From an uncultured Gammaproteobacteria bacterium (GTDB taxonomy: Bacteria > Patescibacteriota > Microgenomatia > Levybacterales > UBA12049): a stretch of DNA of 64,000 nucleotides. Each line of letters opens with the position of its first letter. The stretch's first letter is position 1. The position numbers were made by a program, and so were the translations under genes. Below the pieces are notes generated by a model. It saw nothing but the letters and a program-made list of their open reading frames with translations. It did not search any database and was not told the origin of the DNA. The stretch covers positions 2,604 through 66,603 of the forward strand of contig CAZCYO010000002.1 in assembly GCA_964503265.1 (NCBI GenBank), given 5' to 3'. Shown piece after piece: positions 8,555 to 58,049 of this stretch.

Positions 8555-10163
8555 TTTAGAAATGAGAACTATTGCACCAAAGCTAGAGAAGAAGTATTAC
8601 GTTGAGTATGCCCGTAAATCCTCAGAGTCTGAGGATAGACAGGTTGAATCAATAAACGACCAGTTGAAAGTTTTAGAAGAAGTCAGTTCAATAAGGAATC
8701 TCCAAATAAAGTTTAAGCCCTTTTCAGAATCTCGCTCTGCAAAATCTCCTGGACGGCCAGAATTTAATAGAATGCTAGATGAAATAAACGAAAGAGGTGA
8801 CATTAAAGGCATTATTGTCTGGAAACTCAATAGACTGTTTAGAAACCCTGAGGACGAGGGAAAAATAAGGCAAATGTTATCAGACGGAAGAATTCTTGAA
8901 ATAGTAACGCCTTCTAAAACCTATTACGAAGCTGATAGTGATTTCGCTATGGCAGTTGAAGGTGCTCAAGCTCAAAGATTTATTAGAGATTTAAGGGAAG
9001 ATACAGCACGAGGTGTAAAAAACAAACTTGATAAAGGTATCGCTCCGATTCTTGCACCTCCCGGGTATCGTAATGCAATTGAAATGAGACAAGGAGAAAA
9101 AACAATTGAACCTCACCAGACCCAGTTTACCCTTGTCAGGCAGTTATTTGAAATCTTCATGACGGGTAATTATTCTGTTCAAGGACTACACGCAGTAGCA
9201 GAAGAAATGGGCATCAGAAGCAATAGGGGTAAAATTGTCAGTAAAACACAGCTTTACGAAATGTTAAGAAATCCATTTTATACTGGCATAAGATTTATCT
9301 ACGCTGAAAAGCTCTATACAAATGGAGCACATAAGAGGATGCTTCTCGATGAAGAGTTTGACCTTGTGCAGGATATACTAAGTCGAAGAACTCATCCAAG
9401 GGGTCAAATACACACAAATTTACTGACAGGGCTAATGAAATGTGGTGAGTGCGGAATGAGTATTACTTCCGAAGTAAAAGAAAAGAAGTACAAAAATGGC
9501 AAGTCTCAGGTTTTTGTATATTATCGTTGCACTAAGAAAAAAAATGGTATGAAATGCACCCAACCTTACATAAATGCAAAAGAACTTGAAGAGCAGGTTA
9601 TGGAGTATCTTGATGGGCTTGAATTGTCACCAAAGATTGTCGAATGGACAGTAAAATGGCTAAATGTAATGCACAAGAGTCAGGCTGAAACAAGGATAGT
9701 AAAATACAAAAATATTGAACAAACCTACGAAGAAACGTTAAGAAAATTGGATAGAATTGTTGATTTAGTACTTAGCGGATTATTAGGTGTTGAAGAAGGG
9801 AAAACTAAAAAACAGGAGCTTGAACTGGAGAAGAAAAAACTATCAGAGCAACTTGAGGGGATAAATAATCACGCTGATGATTGGAATACCTTAACTATTG
9901 ATACATTCGACTTTGTAAAAAACATTAAAGAAAGATTTTCTAAGGGAACTATTGAGCAACGCAAAACTATTTTACGTACAATTGGCTCGAACCTAGTGCT
10001 AAATGATAGAAAACTTGCGATTGAGGTTCGTAAACCGTTTGAATTCATTATGAAGGCTACTGAAAAACTTGATGAAGATATTTTGGCTCGAACTCCTGAA
10101 TTGCCTGTTATATCAACCCAGGAGGCCTTTTCGGGTCCGAGTATTAATGTTTTGGGTGGATGA
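8541..10163 (+). CDS. large serine recombinase (integrase/resolvase family with zinc-ribbon domain)
   Basis: 540 aa; catalytic region YVEYARKSSESEDRQVESINDQ (Ser nucleophile); recombinase domain; Cys cluster CGECGMS...YYRCTKKKNGMKC; alternative start at M9 (8565). Confidence 0.9.
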   Translation: MKLLDLEMRTIAPKLEKKYYVEYARKSSESEDRQVESINDQLKVLEEVSSIRNLQIKFKPFSESRSAKSPGRPEFNRMLDEINERGDIKGIIVWKLNRLFRNPEDEGKIRQMLSDGRILEIVTPSKTYYEADSDFAMAVEGAQAQRFIRDLREDTARGVKNKLDKGIAPILAPPGYRNAIEMRQGEKTIEPHQTQFTLVRQLFEIFMTGNYSVQGLHAVAEEMGIRSNRGKIVSKTQLYEMLRNPFYTGIRFIYAEKLYTNGAHKRMLLDEEFDLVQDILSRRTHPRGQIHTNLLTGLMKCGECGMSITSEVKEKKYKNGKSQVFVYYRCTKKKNGMKCTQPYINAKELEEQVMEYLDGLELSPKIVEWTVKWLNVMHKSQAETRIVKYKNIEQTYEETLRKLDRIVDLVLSGLLGVEEGKTKKQELELEKKKLSEQLEGINNHADDWNTLTIDTFDFVKNIKERFSKGTIEQRKTILRTIGSNLVLNDRKLAIEVRKPFEFIMKATEKLDEDILARTPELPVISTQEAFSGPSINVLGG

Positions 10164-10229
10164 CGGGATTCGAACCCGCGACCCTCAGTACCACAAACTG
10201 ATGCTCTAACCAACTGAGCTACAACCACC
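10155..10229 (-). tRNA. tRNA-His (anticodon GTG) with encoded G-1
   Basis: Hand-folded cloverleaf: D stem GCTC/GAGC, anticodon stem TCAGT/ACTGA, loop TTGTGGT, T-loop TTCGAAT, G-1 pairing with discriminator C; no encoded CCA. Confidence 0.85.
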
Positions 10230-10238
10230 ATGTTCATT

Positions 10239-10290
10239 TGATGCTCTAACCAACTGACCCCGATTTAATCGGGGCTGAGCTACAACCACC
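10239..10290 (-). pseudogene. tRNA-His 5'-half fragment (acceptor plus D-arm to start of anticodon stem) carrying a 17-nt palindromic insert in the D-loop
   Basis: Minus strand reads GGTGGTTGTAGCTCAG[CCCCGATTAAATCGGGG]TCAGTTGGTTAGAGCATCA, identical to tRNA-His positions 1-31 apart from the insert, then diverges; 8 nt upstream of the intact tRNA. Confidence 0.55.
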
Positions 10291-14347: not shown

Positions 14348-15151
14348 CTATTTCTTTTTTAGCATTTCTTTGGTTACTCGAATACTTCTTCCTTTCCCTC
14401 CGAAATCTTCGCATACAAATACTGGTTTTTCAGGTTTACTTAAAGTGGGGGAGTATGTGTAGCCGAGTTCTGCAAAATATACGAGGTCTTCTTTTTTTGT
14501 TATTTTATTCGTAATAAGCCAACGAGCGAATGCTCCTCGAGCGATTTTTGCATGAACGACGACAAAACTTGGCTCATTTGTCCTTGGATTTATTGTTAAA
14601 AAATACGGAGCAACGAGACGATTTGAATCCACATATGGAGTAATTGTTCGGAAATATTCTTCAGCTGCGAGGTTTACGATTAGGCCAGAAGAGGGAAGAC
14701 ACTCAACTATATCTTTTCCCCAGAAATCATATAAATCAGCATATTTTTTATTAGGAAGCGTATATCCCATCTCCAGCCGATATGGTGAGATCCCATCGAA
14801 TGGTCGAATACACCCATACAAACCTGAGAGAATAACAAGTACGCTATCAGCATATTCTCTATCACTTTCTGATAAATCGTTAGCGTGTAGGCCACTGTAA
14901 ATGTCACCTAAAAAACTATCGACTGCTACTGATTGTTTCGTCGGTTCTGTGCTCCACTGAGAAAGTAAGTCGTGTGTTTTCTGGGCGAGAGAAGGGGAGA
15001 CCTCCATACTTTTTATTATTTCTTTCACAGAAAGCGTTCTTATATAGTTTCCAAGTTCCTGTGTTTTAGAGAGAAGTTGTGGCTGTCGCAGTGTTTTACC
15101 GTTATTAGGGACTAACTGCATGGTTTTGGAGGAATGAAGTAAAATAGTCAT
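14348..15151 (-). CDS. yaaA: peroxide stress protein YaaA (UPF0246/DUF328)
   Basis: 267 aa; LSGLYGCIRPFDGISPYRLEMG matches YaaA core LSGLYGxLRPLDxMQPYRLEMG. Confidence 0.85.
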   Translation of the reverse strand: MTILLHSSKTMQLVPNNGKTLRQPQLLSKTQELGNYIRTLSVKEIIKSMEVSPSLAQKTHDLLSQWSTEPTKQSVAVDSFLGDIYSGLHANDLSESDREYADSVLVILSGLYGCIRPFDGISPYRLEMGYTLPNKKYADLYDFWGKDIVECLPSSGLIVNLAAEEYFRTITPYVDSNRLVAPYFLTINPRTNEPSFVVVHAKIARGAFARWLITNKITKKEDLVYFAELGYTYSPTLSKPEKPVFVCEDFGGKGRSIRVTKEMLKKK

Positions 15152-15255
15152 CTTAAATAGTTTCTATGACAATTATACAACATCAAGAATTTTCTAAAAT
15201 TACTAGCAACAAATTTATATTGACAGAACTTCAGAGATAGGTTACTGTTTTATAA

Positions 15256-19839: not shown

Positions 19840-19867
19840 CTCTTTGACAATCTCAGTTCATCTGATA
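19840..19867 (+). repeat. 28-bp direct repeat copy 1 (contains TTGACA)
   Basis: ctctttgacaatctcagttcatctgata identical to 22280..22307. Confidence 0.8.
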
Positions 19868-20170
19868 AGTCTTGCGCGTGGATCCCACTATAAATATCAC
19901 CTAAAAAGTTATCGATAGCTATTGATTATCGAGCAGGCTCAGTAGTCCAGTGTGAAAGGAGGTCATGGGTTTTAATTGTTAAAGCAGAGAAGATATCCAT
20001 ACTTTTTTCTATTTCTCCTGGGGAAAGCTCTTTCAGATAATTTCCAAGCTCGTGTGCTTTAGAGAATAGTTGAGGTTATCTCAGCGTCTCACCTTGAGGG
20101 GCACAGACTGCATGGTTTTTGATGAGTGTAATAAAATTGTCATTTCTTATAGTTTCAAGTGTAATTATAC
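19868..20170 (-). pseudogene. degraded duplicate of yaaA 5' region (first about 95 codons plus about 35 bp upstream)
   Basis: About 70% nt identity to 14871..15185 by eye; translation MTILLHSSKTMQSVPLKVRR* has multiple stops. Confidence 0.7.
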
Positions 20171-20183
20171 ATTCGTACGTATT

Positions 20184-20945
20184 TTAATATACCGTAATTT
20201 TTCTGTGAGCAATGCTAATTTTTCCTTCTTTTGCTAACTCATCGAGTGCTTCTGTTACCCGTGAGCGAGTCGCCCAGAGTAAGTCTGCAATTTCTTCTTG
20301 GGAAAGTGTGATTTCGTTATTCGGAAAGTAGGGAGCAAGGTACGTAAGGACAATCATCGTACGTTCGTGAAGGTTTTTTGAAAATAATTCTTCTAAATAG
20401 TTGTCGAAATAGGTAACCGTGCTTGCAAATAATTCAAAAAAAATAAAAGCAAGTGTGGGGTATTCATGTACGAGTCGTTCGAAATCATTTTGGGATAGAA
20501 CGAGTGTTTCTGTCTGGAGAAGTGCTTGGGCGCTTACTGTATTTGGTTTATTATTAATGAGTCCCATTTCTCCAATCATATCTTTCGTTCCTAAAATATC
20601 GATATTTATGTAATGACCTTCAAGAGTCGTTCTATATGTACTCACGACTCCTTCATAAATAAAATATGCATGATGACTATCAGCATCTTGAAATAGTATT
20701 ACATCAGACTTCTGAAATGTTTTTGGATAGGTCCATTCTGCTAATGCTCTAAGTGTTTTCGTCGAAACATCAGCAAAAAGCGGAAAGACACTTAAGATTT
20801 GTAATTTTTCGTCTGTTGACATGAGCTTATTATAAGCCTTTATTCGCCATCTCTCAACTATAACCCCTAAGGATACTCTACCTACTTCTTTTACATCGTT
20901 CCCCAGAGAACATAAATTCGTGCCTATTCCTTCTATTATCACCAT
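20184..20945 (-). CDS. Crp/Fnr-family transcriptional regulator
   Basis: 253 aa; cNMP-binding-like beta-roll plus C-terminal HTH RSRVTEALDELAKEGKI. Confidence 0.8.
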   Translation of the reverse strand: MVIIEGIGTNLCSLGNDVKEVGRVSLGVIVERWRIKAYNKLMSTDEKLQILSVFPLFADVSTKTLRALAEWTYPKTFQKSDVILFQDADSHHAYFIYEGVVSTYRTTLEGHYINIDILGTKDMIGEMGLINNKPNTVSAQALLQTETLVLSQNDFERLVHEYPTLAFIFFELFASTVTYFDNYLEELFSKNLHERTMIVLTYLAPYFPNNEITLSQEEIADLLWATRSRVTEALDELAKEGKISIAHRKITVY

Positions 20946-27010: not shown

Positions 27011-27052
27011 ATGGACTAAATGGTATTCCGGATTTGATTGATTCGGAATAGT

Positions 27053-27086
27053 ATCTAATAGATTCCCGCCTTCGCGGGAATGACAA
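27053..27086. repeat. conserved hairpin element copy 1 (atctaatagattcccgccttcgcgggaatgacaa)
   Basis: Shares flanks and stem with copies at 44027..44064 and 49557..49596; loop differs. Confidence 0.6.
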
Positions 27087-31247: not shown

Positions 31248-31805
31248 TTATTTTTCCTTCGCATAGATAAGCAATCTTTTCAGTGTAGTTCCTATCGGTG
31301 TACAAGTCTGCAAGATTAAGACATCTCCCGTAACCTCAGTGACTGCACTCACTTCAGTCGGCCAGACTTCCTTCATATCATACACTTCATAGGTATATTC
31401 TGTATCGTTACGAGTTAGAATAATATGATCATTTTTTTTCAATTCTCCTAGACGGAGAAATATCGTATTAAATCGTGTCACTTCCCATGGAAAACCACTT
31501 GAATGAGCAAATAAAAATATGACTCCTTTTTCTCCTGGAAGTGCTGTATCTTTGGCTTGTGCCACACCTTTTTGTAGTGCTGGTCTATAGATTGATTCAC
31601 TCCACGGATCGACTCCTGGGATGATTGGGGATTGTGCGTGAATTTTTGGAATCGTAATTGTCAAACCATGCAGTGTCGAGATCGGACGGAGCTGAGGAGG
31701 AAGAAGATACGCAAACAACAGGGGATAGAGGACAAAGGTAAAAAAACTGATAGAAGAGACAATCAGTATATTTCCGAGATAATAAAAAAATGATTTATTA
31801 AACAT
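31248..31805 (-). CDS. sortase (transpeptidase)
   Basis: N-terminal TM; His in FLFAHSSG, catalytic Cys in LILQTCTP (TLxTC), Arg in TLKRLL. Confidence 0.75.
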   Translation of the reverse strand: MFNKSFFYYLGNILIVSSISFFTFVLYPLLFAYLLPPQLRPISTLHGLTITIPKIHAQSPIIPGVDPWSESIYRPALQKGVAQAKDTALPGEKGVIFLFAHSSGFPWEVTRFNTIFLRLGELKKNDHIILTRNDTEYTYEVYDMKEVWPTEVSAVTEVTGDVLILQTCTPIGTTLKRLLIYAKEK

Positions 31806-31894
31806 ATATCGTATGTATGGTGACGATTGTACGTCTGGAGTGTGATTTTGTCAAAAAAAAAGCGACTCTCACATTGAGTCGCTTTCTATACTCT

Positions 31895-33013
31895 CTAGAG
31901 ACTAGAGGGTGAGTTCCCGGATCGCAGTCTTAAATAGACACCCATAAAGAGCATAAACATATTTCCAATGAGCAGCATGAATAACCAATTTCCACCTGTC
32001 GCTGGAAGAACTGATCCAGTCGTTGCACCAAGCACTGAGCCTCCACTTGATCCACCAGATGATGGATTTGATGATCCTCCTGGGTTACTCGTCGTAGTAG
32101 GAGGAGTTGTCGGTGGGTTAGATGGATTTGATGGTGTTTCTTTACATACACCCATCTGCACGGTATTTACATTCCCGACATTAGTAATAGTGGTCATAGC
32201 GAGAATAGAACCTGTCGTGATCGATACATTCCCGTTATTTCCATTTGCACTGTTTCCGCCAGTATTCAAATTATAGAGAACAGTATTAATAATCGTTTCA
32301 TTATTCAGTACATTGATCGAAACAAGGTTGTTAGTAGATATATTCGTTGTATTCGTAGACCCAGCTCCGTTTCCAATAATTTTTATTTTATAAGGATCTG
32401 ATTCAGTATGACCAAGTTGCACAACGTTGCTGTTATAGGTGTTAGAAATAGCGTTGTTAACAAAAACTGATCCAGTAGTAATAGACGTGTTGCCATTATT
32501 TCCATTTGCACTGTTTCCGCCAGTATTTATATTCCCAGTAACAGTATTCGTAATAGTTGCATTATTTGTGGTTGAGACTGCGGTTTGATTTGACGAAGCA
32601 ACACCGGCGGTGTTGGTTGAACCGCTGCCATTTCCACTTACAGTAATTGTGCCAGAGCCATTACTCCCGTCTGTTGAGCAGCCACATCCAGATATAACAG
32701 TATTTGTATTACCTGAGTTCGCAACTGAGGTAGTGCTTTGGGCATTTCCTGTTGAGACAGATGTAGTACCGTTATTTGCATTAGCACTGTTCCCGCCAGT
32801 ATTTGCATTTGAGGTGACGGCGTTCGTTGTTGTATTGGTATTAGATGACTGCACTGAAACCTGAGAGTTTGAGTTGGTGTTTACTTGATTGTCACTTGTC
32901 GAACCATTATCAGCGATTACGATATCATCAGCATGTGCTGGATGAACCACAACGCCACTTCCAAGAAGTGCAATTAATGGCACTAATAATAATATATATA
33001 TTTTTTGCTTCAT
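31895..33013 (-). CDS. LPXTG-anchored Asn/Thr/Gly-rich repeat surface protein
   Basis: Signal peptide; NTGGNSANxNNG repeats; C-terminal LPATGG then hydrophobic segment then RLRSGN. Confidence 0.75.
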   Translation of the reverse strand: MKQKIYILLLVPLIALLGSGVVVHPAHADDIVIADNGSTSDNQVNTNSNSQVSVQSSNTNTTTNAVTSNANTGGNSANANNGTTSVSTGNAQSTTSVANSGNTNTVISGCGCSTDGSNGSGTITVSGNGSGSTNTAGVASSNQTAVSTTNNATITNTVTGNINTGGNSANGNNGNTSITTGSVFVNNAISNTYNSNVVQLGHTESDPYKIKIIGNGAGSTNTTNISTNNLVSINVLNNETIINTVLYNLNTGGNSANGNNGNVSITTGSILAMTTITNVGNVNTVQMGVCKETPSNPSNPPTTPPTTTSNPGGSSNPSSGGSSGGSVLGATTGSVLPATGGNWLFMLLIGNMFMLFMGVYLRLRSGNSPSSL

Positions 33014-33073: not shown

Positions 33074-35305
33074 TTACTTTCCGCTGGACAGGCGTGGAAG
33101 GATAACTTTTTTTCCAATAACTGCAAGTGCAATGATTGGAAGAGCCAGAATGAACCAAGCAAGATTGATTGATAACGCACTTGTATTTGCAAAGATTGTA
33201 TTTAAGTCAGATGACTCACCAAGAACATAGACACCGGTTTTAGATGAATTAGTTTTATTTGCAGCTGCTAGTACTTCCTGTGATGTTGATGCAGCTGTTC
33301 CAGCTCGTGCTATGATGCCTTGTGTCGTAGATACTGGCTGAGTCGTCGTCGTCGGTGCTGGCGTGACAGTTACTTGAGCTGGCGCAGTAACAGTTGATTG
33401 AGCTGAAGCTGAATGATTCTGTGCTCCATCTTCTTTCGTATGGCCTGGGGTAATAAGATTTCCAACCCATGAGCCAAAGACATTAACAACTGTAACAACT
33501 AATTTTCCTTTTCCTACGATATTGTTATTTACGAAGTTTACTAAATTAGCGATAACATTTGCATTACCTGTTTTAACAGTACTACTGCCACCAGTATTTT
33601 CATTTGCTGTGTTACCACCGGTGTTTGCAGAAAGATTAATAGTATTAGTGATATGCGCATCGTTGTTTTGTTCTGTATTCGATGAGTTGTTTGTTGTATC
33701 AGAAGCATTATTGTTAGATCCAGCTCCATTGCCTGTGTTCGTCGTGTCCCCATTAGATGCTGTGACAGTTCCATTCTCATCGACTGTAAACTCTGTGCCT
33801 TCACTGCCAGCCATGTCAGATCCATCTGGAGAGCCAACTAATTTACCTACCCATTGACCAGCACGGTTCACAAGTACTAACCACCATGTTTTTCCACTAT
33901 CGACATTCGAATTTGCGACGTTTAGGGTAGTTGCTTTTACATTTGCATTACCCGAGGTAACAGTGTTACTTCCATCAGTGTTAGCACTTGTCGAGTTATC
34001 ACCAGTATTTGCATCGAAGGTTAAGTTATTATCGATGATTGCGTTATTTGATTGACTTGTATTATTTGTATTGTTTCCAGTGGTTGAAGCATTATTATTT
34101 GAACCTGCACCATTGCCACTGTTTTTTGTTGTAGATGCACTTGGAGAGTCTGTTTCAGGTGCGACGAGTTCGTTTGGAATAATGATATCTCCCTCTAAGT
34201 TACCATAGATATTAATCGTGTTGTACTGTACGTTTCCACCGTCAATGTTGTTATTTGCGAAGGTTAAAACGTTTGCATCAACGTTTGCGTTCCCTGTACG
34301 AACAGTCGTACTTCCACCTGTGTTATCAGATGCATCATTGTAGCCACTATTTGATGAGAGAGTCAGCTCTGATCCGACAGTCGCGTTGTTAGATTGTGAT
34401 GTATTATCACTACTGTTAGCCGTTGTTGATGCGTTATTGTTTGAACCTGCGCCATTACCAGTATTCGTTGCAGAGCCAGTACTCCCAGGGCATCCTGAAA
34501 TACAATGTGATGCAACATTTTGTGGAGTAAGGACGATATCTCCATGATAGTCATCGTTAACGTTAAATTCAGCAACTTGTACACCATCAAGATTTGTATT
34601 TACTGAGGTAATAACAGTACCACTCGTATTTGCATCTCCAGTAGTTACTGTCGTATTACCATTCGTATTATATGAAGCAGAGTTATTTCCACTATCTGTT
34701 GCGAGTTGAAGTGAATTTCCTACAGTTGCGTTATTTGTCTGTGCTGTATTTGCTGAGTCAGATACTGTTGCTGAGCTACTATTATTCGATCCAGCACCGT
34801 TTCCTGTATTAGCAGCAGAGTCATCACCTGTCGTGCAAGCAGAGCAGGAACTACTACCATTTCCATTTGCAGTATTATTATTCGCATTTGTCGTGATCGT
34901 ACCACTATTCGTAGTATTTCCTGTTGCGACAGTAGTATTGCCATTATTACCATTTGAAGTTGTTCCTGTGTCGCCAGTTGAACCTGCCTGTTGTGCTGCT
35001 GCATTTTGCGCTTGTGCAGGAGTTGGAGTAGGGGTTTCACCTGGTTTTAACGGCTGATCTGGTTGGTCAGGGGTTACAGGCGCTTGAGTAGGAGCAGCAG
35101 TTGGGGCTGTCGTTGATGGTTTTTGTGGCGCTTGTGGTGCAGAAGGAACCTGTGGAGCAGGAGCTGAGGTAACTTGTGCTTGTGGTGCGACAGCAGCATC
35201 AGCTACAGGAGCATCATCAGCCAAAGCTGGTGTAATATTTACGGTTAATAATGCAATCACTAAGAGTGATGCAATAGTTTTTTTAATTGTTTCTAAATAA
35301 TTCAT
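33074..35305 (-). CDS. large secreted Asn/Thr/Gly-rich tandem-repeat surface protein with C-terminal TM anchor
   Basis: 743 aa; about five 115-aa repeats (NTGNGAGSNNxAS...SNNATVG...); Pro/Ala/Gln-rich linker after signal peptide; C-terminal TM plus KK tail, no LPXTG. Confidence 0.7.
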   Translation of the reverse strand: MNYLETIKKTIASLLVIALLTVNITPALADDAPVADAAVAPQAQVTSAPAPQVPSAPQAPQKPSTTAPTAAPTQAPVTPDQPDQPLKPGETPTPTPAQAQNAAAQQAGSTGDTGTTSNGNNGNTTVATGNTTNSGTITTNANNNTANGNGSSSCSACTTGDDSAANTGNGAGSNNSSSATVSDSANTAQTNNATVGNSLQLATDSGNNSASYNTNGNTTVTTGDANTSGTVITSVNTNLDGVQVAEFNVNDDYHGDIVLTPQNVASHCISGCPGSTGSATNTGNGAGSNNNASTTANSSDNTSQSNNATVGSELTLSSNSGYNDASDNTGGSTTVRTGNANVDANVLTFANNNIDGGNVQYNTINIYGNLEGDIIIPNELVAPETDSPSASTTKNSGNGAGSNNNASTTGNNTNNTSQSNNAIIDNNLTFDANTGDNSTSANTDGSNTVTSGNANVKATTLNVANSNVDSGKTWWLVLVNRAGQWVGKLVGSPDGSDMAGSEGTEFTVDENGTVTASNGDTTNTGNGAGSNNNASDTTNNSSNTEQNNDAHITNTINLSANTGGNTANENTGGSSTVKTGNANVIANLVNFVNNNIVGKGKLVVTVVNVFGSWVGNLITPGHTKEDGAQNHSASAQSTVTAPAQVTVTPAPTTTTQPVSTTQGIIARAGTAASTSQEVLAAANKTNSSKTGVYVLGESSDLNTIFANTSALSINLAWFILALPIIALAVIGKKVILPRLSSGK

Positions 35306-35313
35306 ATTTATAT

Positions 35314-35362
35314 CTAATTTCTAATTTCTAATTTCTAATTTCTAATTTCTAATTTCTAATTT
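35314..35362. repeat. heptanucleotide tandem repeat (CTAATTT)x7, i.e. (AATTAGA)7 on the coding strand of the downstream gene
   Basis: Seven perfect units located 9 to 57 nt upstream of ATG (35305) of the 743-aa surface protein. Confidence 0.9.
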
Positions 35363-35431
35363 GATTATTATGAGGACACGAGAGTACTTTTACCGAAGTG
35401 CTGATAAAGCACTCTCGTTTGTCCTACATAA

Positions 35432-36682
35432 TTACATTGACATGAAAGCCATCCATGCTGCCCACATACCTGAAAAGTTAGATGTGAAACTAACATTACC
35501 AAGACCTGGGAGTGCGATAGCGCCATTACCAACGTTGTTTACGTTACCACCGTTTGCGATAGTAACTTCAGTGAGAGCTCCACCTGAAGTAACAGCTGGA
35601 TCTGTGATCATTCCGTAGACTGATCCTGTGTTTGCACTTGCGTCATTACCACCAGTTGCTGCTGTTGGAATAGCGAAGTTACTTAACAGTTCACTGTTTG
35701 TTGTTGAAACAGCAAGGATATTATTATTGTTAGCGTTAATAGCTGAGGCTGAGCCTGCGCCATTTCCGAGAACTTTATAAAGATCTCCTGTTGTTGTGCA
35801 ACCACAATCATTTAATGAAGCAACGTTGAAGTTAGGTTCATTAACGATGTGTGCTTTTGCAATTGCAGGTCCTGAAGTAACGGCGACGTTACCACCAGTG
35901 TTTGCACTTGCGTTGTTTCCTCCAGTAGCTGCTGTAGAGAACACAGAGTTCAAGATAACAGCACTGTTAGATTGTCCAAGTGAAACTGTTTTATTATCAT
36001 TAAGATTAGCTGAGTTTTGTGAACCCGCGCCGTTTCCACTGATAAGAACAGTGTCTCCTGAAAGTCCTGCAACACCTCCGACTGAACCAATCTGAGCTGA
36101 GTTGACGTTAGCTGCGTTAGCAACTGAAACTTGTGAAGCTGCTCCACCTGCAGTAACAGTAACGTTACCACCAGTGTTTGCACTTGCGTTGTTTCCGCCA
36201 GTTGATGCATCAGATGTGATTAAATTAGAGATAGCTGCATTGTTTGTTTGTCCAAGTGCTGTTGTATTGTTGTGATTAGAGTTAACTGCGTTAGCTGAGC
36301 CAGCGCCGTTATCAAGAATTCCAACAGTATTTGCACCACCTTGACAGTTACAATTTCCATTAACCAATGCTGAATTTGTATTTGCAGCGTTAGTGACAGA
36401 AACTCCAGAGATAGCATTTCCTGATGTAACAGTAGTGTTTCCTCCAGTGTTCGCACTTGCATTGTTTCCTCCAGTTGTTGCAGTTGATACAACAGTGTTA
36501 GAAATGTTTGCATTATTGCTTTGTGATACAGATGTAACGTTGTTGTTATTGGTATTGACCTGGTTTTGTGAACCAGCTCCGTTTCCAGCAACTACGTCAG
36601 TGTTAGCAAAGGCCATTGGTGCTAAGGCATTGAGTAAGACTGCTCCGGTTGCGATAGCTGTAGCGATTTTTTTATTTAACAT
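35432..36682 (-). CDS. secreted Asn/Thr/Gly-rich repeat protein (paralog of 30343, 31895, 33074)
   Basis: Signal peptide MLNKKIATAIATGAVLLNALAPMAFA; repeats GNGAGSQN...ANTGGN; CxC linkers. Confidence 0.65.
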   Translation of the reverse strand: MLNKKIATAIATGAVLLNALAPMAFANTDVVAGNGAGSQNQVNTNNNNVTSVSQSNNANISNTVVSTATTGGNNASANTGGNTTVTSGNAISGVSVTNAANTNSALVNGNCNCQGGANTVGILDNGAGSANAVNSNHNNTTALGQTNNAAISNLITSDASTGGNNASANTGGNVTVTAGGAASQVSVANAANVNSAQIGSVGGVAGLSGDTVLISGNGAGSQNSANLNDNKTVSLGQSNSAVILNSVFSTAATGGNNASANTGGNVAVTSGPAIAKAHIVNEPNFNVASLNDCGCTTTGDLYKVLGNGAGSASAINANNNNILAVSTTNSELLSNFAIPTAATGGNDASANTGSVYGMITDPAVTSGGALTEVTIANGGNVNNVGNGAIALPGLGNVSFTSNFSGMWAAWMAFMSM

Positions 36683-37121
36683 ATATTTTTATTTTTCACC
36701 CCCTCTCTTTTGTAGGATCTCTTAATTAAAAGAGCACTTCATTTTTTTTCCGTTTTTATCTAAATGCCTGAGGCCTTAGATAAAAAAACGGAAATTTCCC
36801 GCATCTAATTATTTAGATAAGAGAAATCTCCGTTTTTGAGATATGTACTGTATTTATTTTAAAAACTATATTCATATTTTGTATTACCTAATATATCTTG
36901 TATTTATTATGATTGTGTAAGAATACTAACTTCGTAATAATATTCTTACAACTATTTTGTAAACAAAAAAAGGCACCATTATATGAATACAATTTTCATA
37001 TAAAGATGCCTCCGGGAGCGGTCAGCTCTTTTATTTACTCTTTACTCTGTAGTGGTAAAGATGTGTTCTAAACACTAAATATAGATATTAGTGAAATCTT
37101 TGTCAATAGGGAAAATCTTGA

Positions 37122-42799: not shown

Positions 42800-43447
42800 A
42801 TGACAAAGACTGCGAAAGTAGAGGAAATAGCGAGAAGACTCTATGAGCTCTTTCCAAACCCACATACAGCATTGACGTATAAAACACCACTGCAGTTACT
42901 ATTTGCGACAATCCTCTCAGCACAAGCAACAGATAAAGTGGTTAACACAGTAACTCCAGCATTGTTTGAAAGATATAAAACAGTTGAAGACTTTGCGAGC
43001 GCACACGTACAAGATATTGATTCACTGATTACAAGAGTAAACTTCCATAATACTAAAGCTAAATCTATTCACGAAGCTGCAAAAATGATTGTTGAAAAAT
43101 ACGATGGGGAAGTACCACGAACGATGGAAGAGCTCGACGCACTTCCCGGAGTTGCACGAAAAACGGCTAATGTCGTTATGAGTAATGCGTTTCATATCGC
43201 AGAAGGAATTGCTGTCGATACCCATGTTATGAGGCTCTCTAAGCAGCTAGGATTGACCACACAGACAAAACCTGAGAAAGTAGAGAGAGATTTGATGAAG
43301 ATCGTTCCTAAAGAGTTATGGCTTGATTTCTCGCATTTACTCATTAACTATGGCCGCACATACGCACCAGCCAGAGGAACAAAACCAGGCCACCCACTTG
43401 AAGATCTTTTTCTTACCAATAAGAAGGAGATAAGAAATAGGAGATAA
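42800..43447 (+). CDS. HhH-GPD DNA glycosylase (endonuclease III family) without C-terminal Fe-S cysteines
   Basis: LTYKTPLQLLFATILSAQATDKVVN and HhH GVARKTANVV; Lys in LSAQATDK, Asp in AVDTH. Confidence 0.75.
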   Translation: MTKTAKVEEIARRLYELFPNPHTALTYKTPLQLLFATILSAQATDKVVNTVTPALFERYKTVEDFASAHVQDIDSLITRVNFHNTKAKSIHEAAKMIVEKYDGEVPRTMEELDALPGVARKTANVVMSNAFHIAEGIAVDTHVMRLSKQLGLTTQTKPEKVERDLMKIVPKELWLDFSHLLINYGRTYAPARGTKPGHPLEDLFLTNKKEIRNRR

Positions 43448-43536
43448 GAAATAGGAGATAGGAGATAATAGATAGTCTTTCTCCTACCTACCATCTACTA
43501 ACTACTAACTACTAACTACTAACTACTAACTATAAT
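43426..43536. repeat. tandem repeats: (GGAGATAAGAAATA)x2 plus GGAGATA x2, then (CTACTAA)x5.9
   Basis: Read directly; spans both 3' ends of the convergent genes 42800..43447 and 43519..43935. Confidence 0.85.
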
Positions 43537-43935
43537 CTCCCCCTCAATAATCGGTCTTTTTGCGTGTTCTTCAAGGATTTTTAGATTTCGAATGTTAGAT
43601 TTAAAAACAAAGTCTCCGATATTTCCAATAATCGGGAATAGTGCGAGAAAAAAATTAAAAGCGATATTTCCCAGCATTCTTGCAATTTTTTCATTCGGAA
43701 GATCCATTCGTAATGCAATCCAAATGAGATAAAAAGAAAGTACGTTTTCGATAATATCACCAATTCCAGGAATTAACCCAATGATCGGTCCTATACCAAA
43801 AGAAAATGATCCGATAGAAAATTTATTATCAAGAAGAGTTGCAAGCATGCGAGCAACTGCTAAATGATTTGTACTTGTTAGTTTCATGTTACTTACTATT
43901 TTACTGGATACATGTATGATTTGCGTAATAAACAA
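43519..43935 (-). CDS. DUF4112-like small membrane protein
   Basis: GIGPIIGLIPGIGD motif and two TM helices; start probably internal Met (MKLTST...). Confidence 0.45.
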   Translation of the reverse strand: MFITQIIHVSSKIVSNMKLTSTNHLAVARMLATLLDNKFSIGSFSFGIGPIIGLIPGIGDIIENVLSFYLIWIALRMDLPNEKIARMLGNIAFNFFLALFPIIGNIGDFVFKSNIRNLKILEEHAKRPIIEGEIIVSS

Positions 43936-44026
43936 TCGAGAGATATACTATGCTTACCGTATGTCTTATTTAATTTGTATCGCTCATCGAAGCCTTGGCG
44001 AGGTTGGGGCGAAGCTGGGATGGAGA

Positions 44027-44064
44027 ATCTATTAGATAGATTCCCGTTTTCACGGGAATGACAA
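44027..44064. repeat. conserved hairpin element copy 2 (atctattagatagattcccgttttcacgggaatgacaa)
   Basis: See copy 1; 11 nt upstream of ATG 44075. Confidence 0.6.
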
Positions 44065-49523: not shown

Positions 49524-49556
49524 AACAAGTTATTTATCATCCCAGACTTGATCGGG

Positions 49557-49596
49557 GATCTATTCCAATAGATTCCCTTTTTCAGGGGAATGACGA
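49557..49596. repeat. conserved hairpin element copy 3 (atctattccaatagattccctttttcaggggaatgacga)
   Basis: See copy 1; intergenic between ABC ATPase and permease genes. Confidence 0.6.
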
Positions 49597-55784: not shown

Positions 55785-58049
55785 TTATATTTTTACACGT
55801 TTTAATAATAATGAATTAGATACAACTGATACTGACGAGAGAGCCATCGCAACTGAAGCAAAAATAGGATTAAGAAGCGGGCCTCCAAAAGGATACAGGA
55901 CGCCCATGGCAACGGGTATTAAAATAATATTATACCCAAACGCCCATACCAAATTCATTCTAATAGTATTCATCGTTTTTCTTGACAATTCAATGGCCGA
56001 GGACACAGACGTTAGATCTTTACTGATAAGTGTGATGTCAGCCGCCTCAATAGCTACATCTGTCCCAGTCCCCATTGCAATACCGATATCTGCTGCTGCG
56101 AGTGCTGGTGCATCGTTAACCCCATCGCCAATCATCGCAACACGTTTTCCTTCTGCCTGAATTTTTCGTATCTCAGCTTCTTTTTGATCAGGCAATACTT
56201 CAGCAAGCACTCGATTAATACCAAGTTTTTGAGCAATTGCCTTAGCAGTTCGCTCATTATCTCCCGTAATCATTACTACTTCAATTCCTCGTCTTTTAAG
56301 TGCAGTAATTCCTTCATTTGCAGAATCCTTAACAGTATCTGCGACTGCCAGTAAAGCAGATAGCTGACCGTCCACTGCGAGCATCATAACAGTTTTGCCA
56401 CCAGTTTCAAGTTTAGAAATGAGCGATTCACTGTGGTCAAGAGATACGTTTTCTCGTTGCATAAGTCGTCTATTACCAAATAAGAGTTTTTTCTCATCAA
56501 CTACACCTTGGACACCGTGTCCCGGGACAGCTTGAAACTTTGTGACAGAAAGAAGTTTGATTTGTTTTACTTCTGCTTCTTTAACAATCGCTTCAGCCAA
56601 CGAATGTTCTGATCCTTTCTCAAGTGATGCAGCTAAACGCAACAATTCCGTTTCACTCTTGATTCCTGATTCCTGATTCTTGATTCTTATTACGTCAGTT
56701 ACTTCAGGTTTGCCATTTGTCAGTGTTCCAGTTTTATCAAAGACGACTACCTGCACTTTATTCGCAATTTCTAAACTCTCTGCATCGCGAATGAGAATTC
56801 CTCGCTGTGCTCCTTTGCCTGTCCCGACCATGATCGCAGTTGGTGTCGCAAGTCCCATCGCACATGGACAGGCGATGATGAGTACCGCAACCATGTTTAA
56901 CATAGCATGGAGGAAGACTGGGGACGGACCAAGCACATACCACAAACCAAATGTAACAATAGCAAGCATGATGACAATTGGTACGAAATATGATGAGACT
57001 GTGTCAGCAAGTCGTTGAATAGGCGCTTTACTTCCTTGGGCTTCCTGTACGAGTTTTATGATCTGTGCAAGCATCGTATCAGCACCTACTTTTGTGGCCT
57101 TATAGGTAAACGTTCCCGATTTATTTATCGTCGAACCCACGACGATATCTCCCTTCATTTTCTCGACAGGCAGACTCTCACCACTAACCATCGACTCATC
57201 TATGGAGGATTCTCCATCAAGAACAACCCCATCAACTGGTATTTTTTCTCCAGGGCGAACACGAAGAATATCTCCAACTAAAACCTGCTCAATGAGAATG
57301 TCTATATCTTTGCCATCTCGTATAACCCGGGCAGTTTTGGCTTGCATACCAATTAATTTTTTAATCGCGTCAGATGTTCCAGCTTTTGCCTTTGCTTCAA
57401 ACAATCGCCCTAAGAGAATTAGTCCAATCACAATCGTCGCCACATCAAAATACGGCATTACTTCTATCTCAAGATTTACAAAGAGCTGTGGGGAAACCGT
57501 CACCACAGTAGAGTAAATAAACGCCACGGTGGTTCCAAGTGCTACTAGTGTGTCCATATTCGCAGTTCGATGCCTAAGTGCTGCAATTGCAGTTTTGTAG
57601 AACTCACTCCCAGCCCAGAACTGTACAGGAATTGCTAAGAGAAGTTGTACCCAGAAATTTTGAAGAAGGGAAGGGGAGGTGTTTACAATTCCTGGAAAAC
57701 TCCCCCACAAAATAAGCGCTCCAAGAAAGAGACTGACAATTACTTTGTTTCGAAGTAATGTTAATCCTTTTTGTTTCTCAGCTTGAATTGCTTCTTCAGA
57801 TTTTTCTTCAAGATCTAATGTATACCCAGTTTTTGCAATCGACTGCGCCAATTGTTCTGGTGTACAGTTGTCTGTATCATACGTAACAGAAGCTTTTTCA
57901 GTCGCAAGATTTACAACCGCATCGACTACTCCAGGTGTTTTTTTTAACGCTCTCTCAGTAACCTTCACACAGGAAGCACAATGCATACCGATTAAAGGGA
58001 AGGTTTTAGTTTGTAGGTTGTGGGTTGTAGGTTTTTGCTTATTGTCCAT
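55785..58049 (-). CDS. copA: copper-translocating P1B-type ATPase CopA
   Basis: N-terminal [11 protein letters not shown]; CPC motif IACPCAMGL; DKTGTLT; GDGVNDAP. Confidence 0.92.

Follow-up and report, generated by a model that had tools for sequence, protein, structure and literature searches.

On its minus strand, the 64,000-nt stretch of DNA analyzed here (the window) carries, in this order, a promoter, a 390-nt leader, a 416-aa gene, a stem-loop, a heptanucleotide tract, a 743-aa gene, a 372-aa gene, a terminator, and a sortase gene (Table 1). The 743-aa product has 486 homologs at approximately 45% identity, and those that are named all belong to the Microgenomates/Patescibacteria (Gottesman-, Ames-, Levy-, Woese-, and Daviesbacteria); to judge from its sequence, the source organism is an uncultivated, groundwater-type Microgenomates bacterium of the Candidate Phyla Radiation (CPR). 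For comparison, 80 orthologous loci (cited by L number where one has to be named) were fetched from one-genome-per-species contigs, with approximately 15 kb sampled per genome; the closest of the GTDB-representative loci is only 60% identical to the source locus over its best segment. Because the product of the 743-aa open reading frame (ORF) starts with a signal peptide (MNYLETIKKTIASLLVIALLTVNITPALA/DD) and has, at its C terminus, a hydrophobic anchor and basic tail, an earlier, sequence-only reading of this DNA was reasonable in calling it a surface protein. Searches of Pfam, NCBIfam, and PDB profiles found no relative for any of the three repeat proteins (743, 416, and 372 aa).

Table 1. 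Features of the repeat-protein locus, listed in the direction of the minus strand
Feature	Position in window	Strand	Basis or remark
Best sigma-70-like promoter of the region, TTGACA-17-TATATT, 11/12	37078..37106	minus	promoter scan
Leader motif GAAGUGC, fully complementary to the hairpin loop, which lies 1.33 kb downstream	36734..36740	minus	sequence, orthologs
Strong Shine-Dalgarno sequence GGGGGTGA of the 416-aa gene	36696..36703	minus	orthologs keep GGAGGTGA/GGGGGTGA
Secreted 416-aa paralog (GNGAGS...NTGGN repeats as in the 743-aa protein)	35432..36682	minus	ORF
Intercistronic stem-loop, ~27 pairs; divergent member of the conserved Microgenomates hairpin	35374..35427	minus	folding, model R1
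Loop motif GCACUUC (CACUU invariant in orthologs)	35395..35401	minus	ortholog alignment
CATAAT hexamer at the 3' base of the hairpin	35367..35372	minus	sequence; no -35, no conservation
(AATTAGA)7 perfect heptanucleotide tract, 49 nt	35361..35313	minus	TRF, sequence
TATAAAT, junction between tract and ATG, 7 nt	35306..35312	minus	no Shine-Dalgarno sequence, no -10 box at leaderless spacing
Secreted repeat protein of 743 aa with a C-terminal anchor, from a family conserved in Microgenomates	33074..35305	minus	ORF, homologs
Third paralog, 372 aa: LPATGG sorting signal, hydrophobic segment, basic tail	31895..33013	minus	ORF
Intrinsic terminator of canonical form (GC stem + T9) downstream of the 372-aa gene	31853..31883	minus	sequence
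Sortase gene with its own TTGACA-17-TACAAT promoter	31248..31805	minus	profile search, promoter scan

The promoter at 37106..37078 is the probable promoter of the operon. The canonical terminator after the 372-aa gene indicates that the organism uses ordinary terminators, which the hairpin between the first two genes does not resemble. Shine-Dalgarno-like motifs are found at only 5 of the 48 long ORFs in the window, and a TAnnnT box ending 5 to 8 nt (mostly 6) before the start codon precedes 15 of 48 genes against a background of 8.3%, which suggests that these 15 have leaderless mRNAs; initiation that is leaderless or independent of a Shine-Dalgarno sequence seems to be of major importance to the organism. 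Both a Shine-Dalgarno sequence and a TAnnnT box at 5 to 8 nt are missing from the 743-aa gene, and a leaderless promoter directly before its ATG was rejected for want of that box.

Tandem repeat analysis with TRF returned a single array upstream of the 743-aa gene (35313-35362; period 7, 7.1 copies, 100% matches, score 100), and a 21-nt probe of three units matched only the tract in the 64-kb window and nothing in 100 dinucleotide shuffles. The perfect (AATTAGA)7 tract that the sequence-only reading had placed directly upstream of this gene was thus borne out, with one correction: the gap to the ATG, given there as 9 nt, measures 7 nt (TATAAAT), with the ATG at 35305. The tract is flanked by GTCCTCATAATAATCA ... 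TATAAATATGAATTA. An independent Logan assembly of SRR12487046 (L001) has an identical flank and at least 4.3 units, its contig starting inside the array and so giving no count. Two hallmarks of a simple-sequence repeat (SSR) contingency locus are present, namely, a slippable perfect repeat (seven units over 49 nt) and placement beside a gene for a surface structure, here 7 nt before the start codon of a gene whose product is secreted and anchored. Both predicted structures, the minimum free energy (MFE) and the centroid one, leave the tract unpaired.

Between the 416-aa gene and the tract, a 156-nt region holding the stem-loop folds at -34 kcal/mol (z -4.5). Inspection of the regions upstream of the orthologs showed that a hairpin with a GCACTTC loop recurs, with A-rich sequence behind it. 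From a plain MAFFT alignment, RNAalifold recovered only 4 pairs, and a covariance model (R1) was therefore built from a seed of 15 loop-anchored sequences. R1 matched once per locus in 64 loci, on the sense strand and directly 5' of the 743-aa ortholog, and nowhere else in 1.12 Mb. Its helix was 88.5% paired, against 69% in shuffled and approximately 40% in slid alignments, with compensatory changes in 16 of 17 pairs and, on the sense strand, 83 G.U against 33 A.C oppositions. The ortholog hairpins have a median of 23 bp, a length that would suffice for RNase III, and of -31 kcal/mol. In 63 of the 64 loci they begin 1 to 23 nt (median 9) after the end of the 416-aa-family gene. The window's hairpin is the sole R1 match in the window (35378-35418) and occupies the syntenic site; it scores weakly (13.4 bits, E 0.82) because its stem sequence has diverged while its loop, GCACUUCGG, has been kept. 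It shares with the conserved Microgenomates stem-loop the CACUU loop, the sense-strand orientation, and the position 1 to 23 nt after a 416-aa-family gene.

Since the ortholog hairpins are followed by A rather than T (an A-rich tail, with at least 5 T within the next 10 nt in only 4 of 64 loci), they are not canonical terminators, and an intrinsic terminator was rejected for the intercistronic hairpin on the same grounds of an A-rich tail and no U-tract. A cUUCGg tetraloop was likewise rejected as the cause of loop conservation, the closing G being variable and CACUU invariant. In a scan of the window against Rfam, tRNAs alone reached threshold; the best local E values of the hairpin and the operon leader, 8.1 and 0.81, fell short of gathering. 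At locus L093 (jgi Ga0613672_001914, 285-1504), a 414-aa gene is followed by the hairpin and A-rich spacer, then by a 370-aa paralog and the 734-aa ortholog with a 4-nt overlap; as another paralog follows the hairpin and spacer here, the hairpin goes with the gene upstream of it and not with the 743-aa family.

The leader of the 416-aa gene contains a motif that could pair with the hairpin loop. In the window, the loop GCACUUC (35401..35395) is complementary at 7 of 7 positions to GAAGUGC (36740..36734), which is predicted to lie in a single-stranded linker between two leader hairpins, its usual placement in orthologs. Of 59 loci, 52 have an exact GAAGUG 24 to 71 nt before the Shine-Dalgarno sequence. 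The 7-bp loop-leader helix, evaluated in 57 distinct loci, is 98% paired, compared with 33 to 50% when slid, and pairing ends exactly at the 7-mer; five core positions of the leader motif were found by pattern, so that only the two flanking pairs are unbiased. The variable pair is C-G in 39 loci, U.G in 7, U-A in 4, A-U in 1, G.U in 1, and mismatched in 5; double changes number six, compared with 1.3 when shuffled (0 of 500). The 390-nt leader itself (36683-37072, minus strand) is highly structured (z -7.8) and looks like an attenuator or riboregulator that has no Rfam counterpart. Its conserved blocks across Microgenomates comprise AGCTGACCGCnnnCGGAGGC, a variable hairpin, and the terminator-like GCCTCCGTTTTTT; 3' of GCCTCCGTTTTTT come a hairpin pairing the U-tract with AAAACGG, then GAAGTGC, a small hairpin, and the Shine-Dalgarno sequence.

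The spacer from hairpin to ATG, in which the tract lies, spans 14 to 230 nt in orthologs (median 52). It contains 53% A, 10.5% C, 12.8% G, and 23% T, compared with 32/18/16/34 in 196 co-directional control spacers, and is nearly free of structure (MFE per nt of -0.06 versus -0.155 in controls; P = 7e-11); no G-rich Shine-Dalgarno position was seen in the spacers of orthologs. That its two strands differ so strongly (53% A versus 23% T) suggests that selection acts on the RNA. Several spacers are as short as 14 to 30 nt (L078, L049, L038, and L073), which is too short for a promoter inside the spacer, and in a promoter scan, 35306-35431 had no promoter-like site, nor did a -35/-10 pair surround or precede the tract. 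The simplest account is consequently read-through from the upstream gene, and the tract most likely lies in a transcribed intercistronic leader. At 35290-35305, the 743-aa gene begins with codons (ATGAATTATTTAGAAACAATTAAAAA) that resemble non-coding spacers of the Amesbacteria and Woesebacteria orthologs (L017 and L021; AATTATTTAGAAA...AATTAAAAA-ATG), and the start codon may have moved upstream into former spacer, with the AATTAGA unit derived from spacer sequence.

Heptanucleotide periodicity is a recurrent property of this spacer. Lag-7 autocorrelation exceeds a Z of 3 in 15 of 52 spacers (mean Z of 1.9), lag 14 has a mean Z of 1.06, and the other lags of at least 2 stay within approximately 0.5 of zero; other intergenic regions of the same loci pass the lag-7 threshold in 14 of 276 cases (odds ratio of 7.6 for the spacer, P = 2e-6). 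Perfect arrays of unrelated units occupy the orthologous site elsewhere, CAAGTAA in 8.4 copies in Daviesbacteria (L033) and TAATAAC in 7.9 copies (L037), and many other loci have degenerate heptamers, among which the Amesbacteria spacer units AATTAGT/AATTAGA/AATTATA resemble that of the window. The AATTAGA array is absent from 86 other loci, and the other arrays in the window use other units. About a third of the period-7 arrays in the loci sit in these spacers, which make up approximately 0.3% of the sequence. Period 7 is also the commonest array period elsewhere, accounting for five of the seven perfect arrays in the window and, across 1.06 Mb of loci, for 16 of 36 arrays with at least 4 copies, which indicates that, besides the local hotspot, the lineage as a whole has a mutational bias toward this period.

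Further heptamer arrays lie at a distance from the spacer. In the window, AGGAGAT/AAGAAAT (7.3 copies, 43425-43475) covers the stop codon of an endonuclease III-like gene (42800-43447, plus strand) between convergent genes; back to back with it lies CTAACTA (7 copies, 43484-43532), whose minus-strand TAG is the stop of ORF 43519..43935 and within which one Logan contig (L082) terminates. A 754-aa ORF (55785..58049, minus strand) contains an imperfect AGGTTGT repeat (4.7 copies, 58001-58033, codons 6 to 16), followed by a CxxC metal-binding motif, and an imperfect TCTTGAT repeat in mid-gene (4.6 copies, 56657-56688); slippage of a 7-nt unit inside this coding region would shift the reading frame. 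Around the same operon in other genomes, arrays are found at L008 13633-13704 (AATACTT, 10.3 copies, between convergent genes), L012 3915-3991, L015 7-55, L002 8225-8246, and L004 2218-2237, and they include two approximately 600 nt upstream of the 416-family gene and short ones right after the stop of the 743-aa ortholog.

Other repeats in the window are of different kinds. A dispersed element of approximately 47 nt has three intergenic copies (27038-27084, 44016-44062, and 49548-49594; 68 to 72% identity) and ends in a hairpin, GATTCCCGC...GCGGGAATGAC; possible identities are a REP-like element and a shared terminator. At 10243-10261, 40 nt from the tRNA-His gene (10154-10228), the 3' part of that gene is partially repeated (19 nt, 84%), a footprint of the type that a tRNA-integrated element can leave. 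Positions 14868-15179 and 19861-20171, approximately 5 kb apart, are 71 to 75% identical and take in the 5' ends of ORFs 14348..15151 and 20184..20945 together with the sequence upstream of each, the two genes being paralogs with a duplicated promoter region.

Variation in copy number was seen at one orthologous site. A search with the flanks of the Daviesbacteria array (L033) matched four JGI metagenome contigs, of which three span the array with 6 units and the fourth breaks inside it. The genome record has 8 units against these 6, with two JGI contigs differing by 0 mismatches and a single 14-nt gap over 10.4 to 11.2 kb. Heptamer tracts at this site do appear to change copy number, on the strength of this only polymorphic example, all unit counts coming from short-read assemblies, which are able to miscount tandem repeats. 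Degenerate arrays were identical, with no difference in length, in a strain pair of 98% identity (L017/L083), in five runs (P0056), and in two samples (P0001), all comparisons of imperfect arrays only. Slippage of perfect arrays and stability of interrupted ones would fit the usual life cycle of repeats. For the source organism, exact-protein look-ups matched only Logan contigs of SRR12487046, which break inside heptamer arrays; the exact look-up of the 416-aa protein returned no record, the protein cluster look-up no variants, and the tract flank pattern no match among metagenome contigs. The tract is probably unstable in the source organism as well.

The sequence-only reading proposed that the tract is a phase-variation switch downstream of a -10-like hexamer, CATAAT. 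In a classic switch of this kind, unit number would alter promoter geometry or transcription-start spacing and thereby turn the gene on or off. Some of this holds, as a genuine perfect repeat adjoins a surface-protein gene, CATAAT is present upstream of the tract, and the Daviesbacteria ortholog array is polymorphic (8 versus 6 units). The promoter part does not. CATAAT overlaps the base of the hairpin stem, has no -35 partner, and is missing from orthologs; no -35/-10 pair flanks, precedes, or encloses the tract, whose 49 nt exceed any promoter spacer; ortholog spacers of 14 to 30 nt exclude an internal promoter; canonical TTGACA/TAnnnT promoters do occur elsewhere in the organism; and the sense-strand composition bias speaks for a constraint at the RNA level. 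We regard a promoter-based switch as improbable. Since orthologs tolerate spacers of 14 to 230 nt, an on/off effect of 7 nt more or less is itself unlikely, and an effect on expression that is graded, or none at all, is more likely.

That no effect exists is the substance of a second account, in which the tract is a neutral microsatellite born of a 7-nt tandem-duplication bias in an A-rich spacer that tolerates insertions. The predominance of period 7 elsewhere, including 5% of other intergenic regions, speaks for such neutrality, as do the arrays between convergent genes, which no start codon follows, and the wide range of ortholog spacer lengths, by which length may matter little. Against it stand the 7.6-fold enrichment at one spacer, with about a third of period-7 arrays in so small a share of the sequence, and the A-rich, C-poor, unstructured spacer character that the arrays retain, suggesting that only compatible units survive; on balance we hold a neutral repeat to be a real possibility, though an unlikely one. 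Alternatively, the seven units could be periodic UAG-N4 binding sites for an oligomeric RNA-binding protein (TRAP/HutP-like) or for an iteron-like DNA-binding protein. The sequence (AAUUAGA)n does place a UAG every 7 nt, the spacing recognized by HutP, yet the orthologous units are unrelated (CAAGUAA, UAAUAAC, AAACUUA, and AAAAUUA) with no common triplet, many orthologs have no array, and units spaced 7 bp apart do not keep in phase with the DNA helix, which together make periodic binding very improbable. Iterons or DNA curvature were rejected for that helical mismatch and for the strand-asymmetric composition, and three-frame stop codons in the unit were rejected as a function, being a chance expectation in AT-rich heptamers. 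Finally, short-read assemblers can miscount repeats, and Logan contigs break both here and at the array near 43.5 kb in the window; even so, the array and its flanks are present in two independent assemblies, 49 nt is shorter than a read, none of 100 shuffles matched, and arrays occupy the same position in other species, so an assembly artefact or chance repeat is scarcely credible.

We lean, with modest confidence, toward the tract being a hypermutable heptanucleotide repeat in a transcribed, unstructured RNA leader, where it would probably act as a graded tuner and not as a promoter element. According to this proposal, the 416-aa and 743-aa genes, and probably the LPATG paralog as well, would be read from one promoter approximately 400 nt upstream of the first gene. 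The conserved stem-loop would close the upstream 416-aa cistron as an RNA element rather than a terminator, its loop being able to pair with the conserved 7-mer in the operon's 5' leader, and the A-rich spacer lacking a Shine-Dalgarno sequence would offer a single-stranded ribosome landing region for the second cistron; the anatomy of the locus is what suggests both co-transcription and the landing-pad role. In Microgenomates, this spacer would repeatedly gain and lose 7-nt units through slippage, with perfect arrays recent and unstable and degenerate arrays their stable remnants. Unit number would set the distance from hairpin to start codon and so tune translation or processing of the downstream message stepwise, as a rheostat, rather than through promoter spacing. 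Copy number would then presumably affect expression of the downstream cistron, although its changes may be nearly neutral. A bolder and rather doubtful extension is a phylum-wide Microgenomates RNA module, in which a kiss between loop and leader brackets the first cistron and the repeat serves as a heritable, reversible rheostat of the anchored protein. If true, the CPR would gain its first described contingency locus, mechanistically parallel to, and evolved independently of, the hmw loci of Haemophilus influenzae.

CPR bacteria are uncultivated, tiny, mostly host-attached cells, and to our knowledge, regulation or variation of their surfaces is essentially undescribed; a literature search turned up no paper that connects the CPR with phase variation or simple-sequence repeats. 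Were a conserved surface-protein operon heritably tuned by a repeat, it would offer a concrete handle on this subject, testable from sequencing reads alone. The locus also contributes two RNA features with no Rfam match, the covarying intercistronic stem-loop and the complementary 5'-leader motif, as well as a lineage-wide 7-nt tandem-duplication bias in Microgenomates, so far a hallmark of heterocystous cyanobacteria.

Several known systems share parts of this arrangement. Stabilizing or processing hairpins lie between cistrons in the Rhodobacter puf, Escherichia coli malEFG (REP), and pap operons. Like them, the Microgenomates stem-loop is a stable hairpin with no U-tract directly after an upstream cistron and could increase the abundance of the upstream RNA segment over that of the downstream segment; unlike it, they are not known to have an invariant loop, a leader partner, or a repeat hotspot behind them. 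[quoted passage not shown] In both cases a short conserved motif 3' of a cistron complements a 5'-leader motif (predicted here from sequence), and for icaR the long-range cis pairing is proposed to control translation or RNase III processing. The icaR 3' motif pairs with the Shine-Dalgarno sequence itself, whereas the Microgenomates leader motif lies 24 to 71 nt upstream of it and its partner would be a hairpin loop, in a 7-bp kissing-type contact.

As for the repeats, the short tandemly repeated repetitive (STRR) heptamers of heterocystous cyanobacteria, reportedly described by Mazel et al. in 1990, reflect a similar preference of a whole lineage for heptanucleotide units arrayed in tandem between genes. 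They are mentioned in PMC4748335 and PMC2670836. In STRRs, a few unit sequences are reused at approximately 100 loci per genome, whereas the Microgenomates arrays each have their own unit, AATTAGA forming an array once in 64 kb and at 0 of 86 other loci. The Microgenomates arrays further differ in phylum and in being positionally conserved beside one operon.

The closest known system to the tract appears to be the H. influenzae hmw1A/hmw2A 5'-UTR heptanucleotide repeat, (ATCTTTC)n, with its RNase III-processed hairpin (PMC12721329; PMC8262952). The two differ in that the hmw repeats form one hairpin arm, pairing with a G-rich stretch, whereas the tract is predicted to be unpaired in both MFE and centroid structures, with the hairpin separate and upstream; in addition, the tract is intercistronic rather than part of a primary 5'-UTR, the proteins are unrelated, and there are 7 units against at least 11 in nature for hmw. 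What they share is a 7-nt unit upstream of a large surface-protein gene (an adhesin in hmw) and a long hairpin in the leader. The hmw repeat is transcribed as leader RNA and is not a promoter spacer, and the same would apply to the tract, for which sequence data give no flanking promoter, short-spacer orthologs, and a sense-strand bias. In hmw, copy number varies in populations and its effect is graded rather than on/off, and we propose that the (AATTAGA)7 tract may be alike in both respects.
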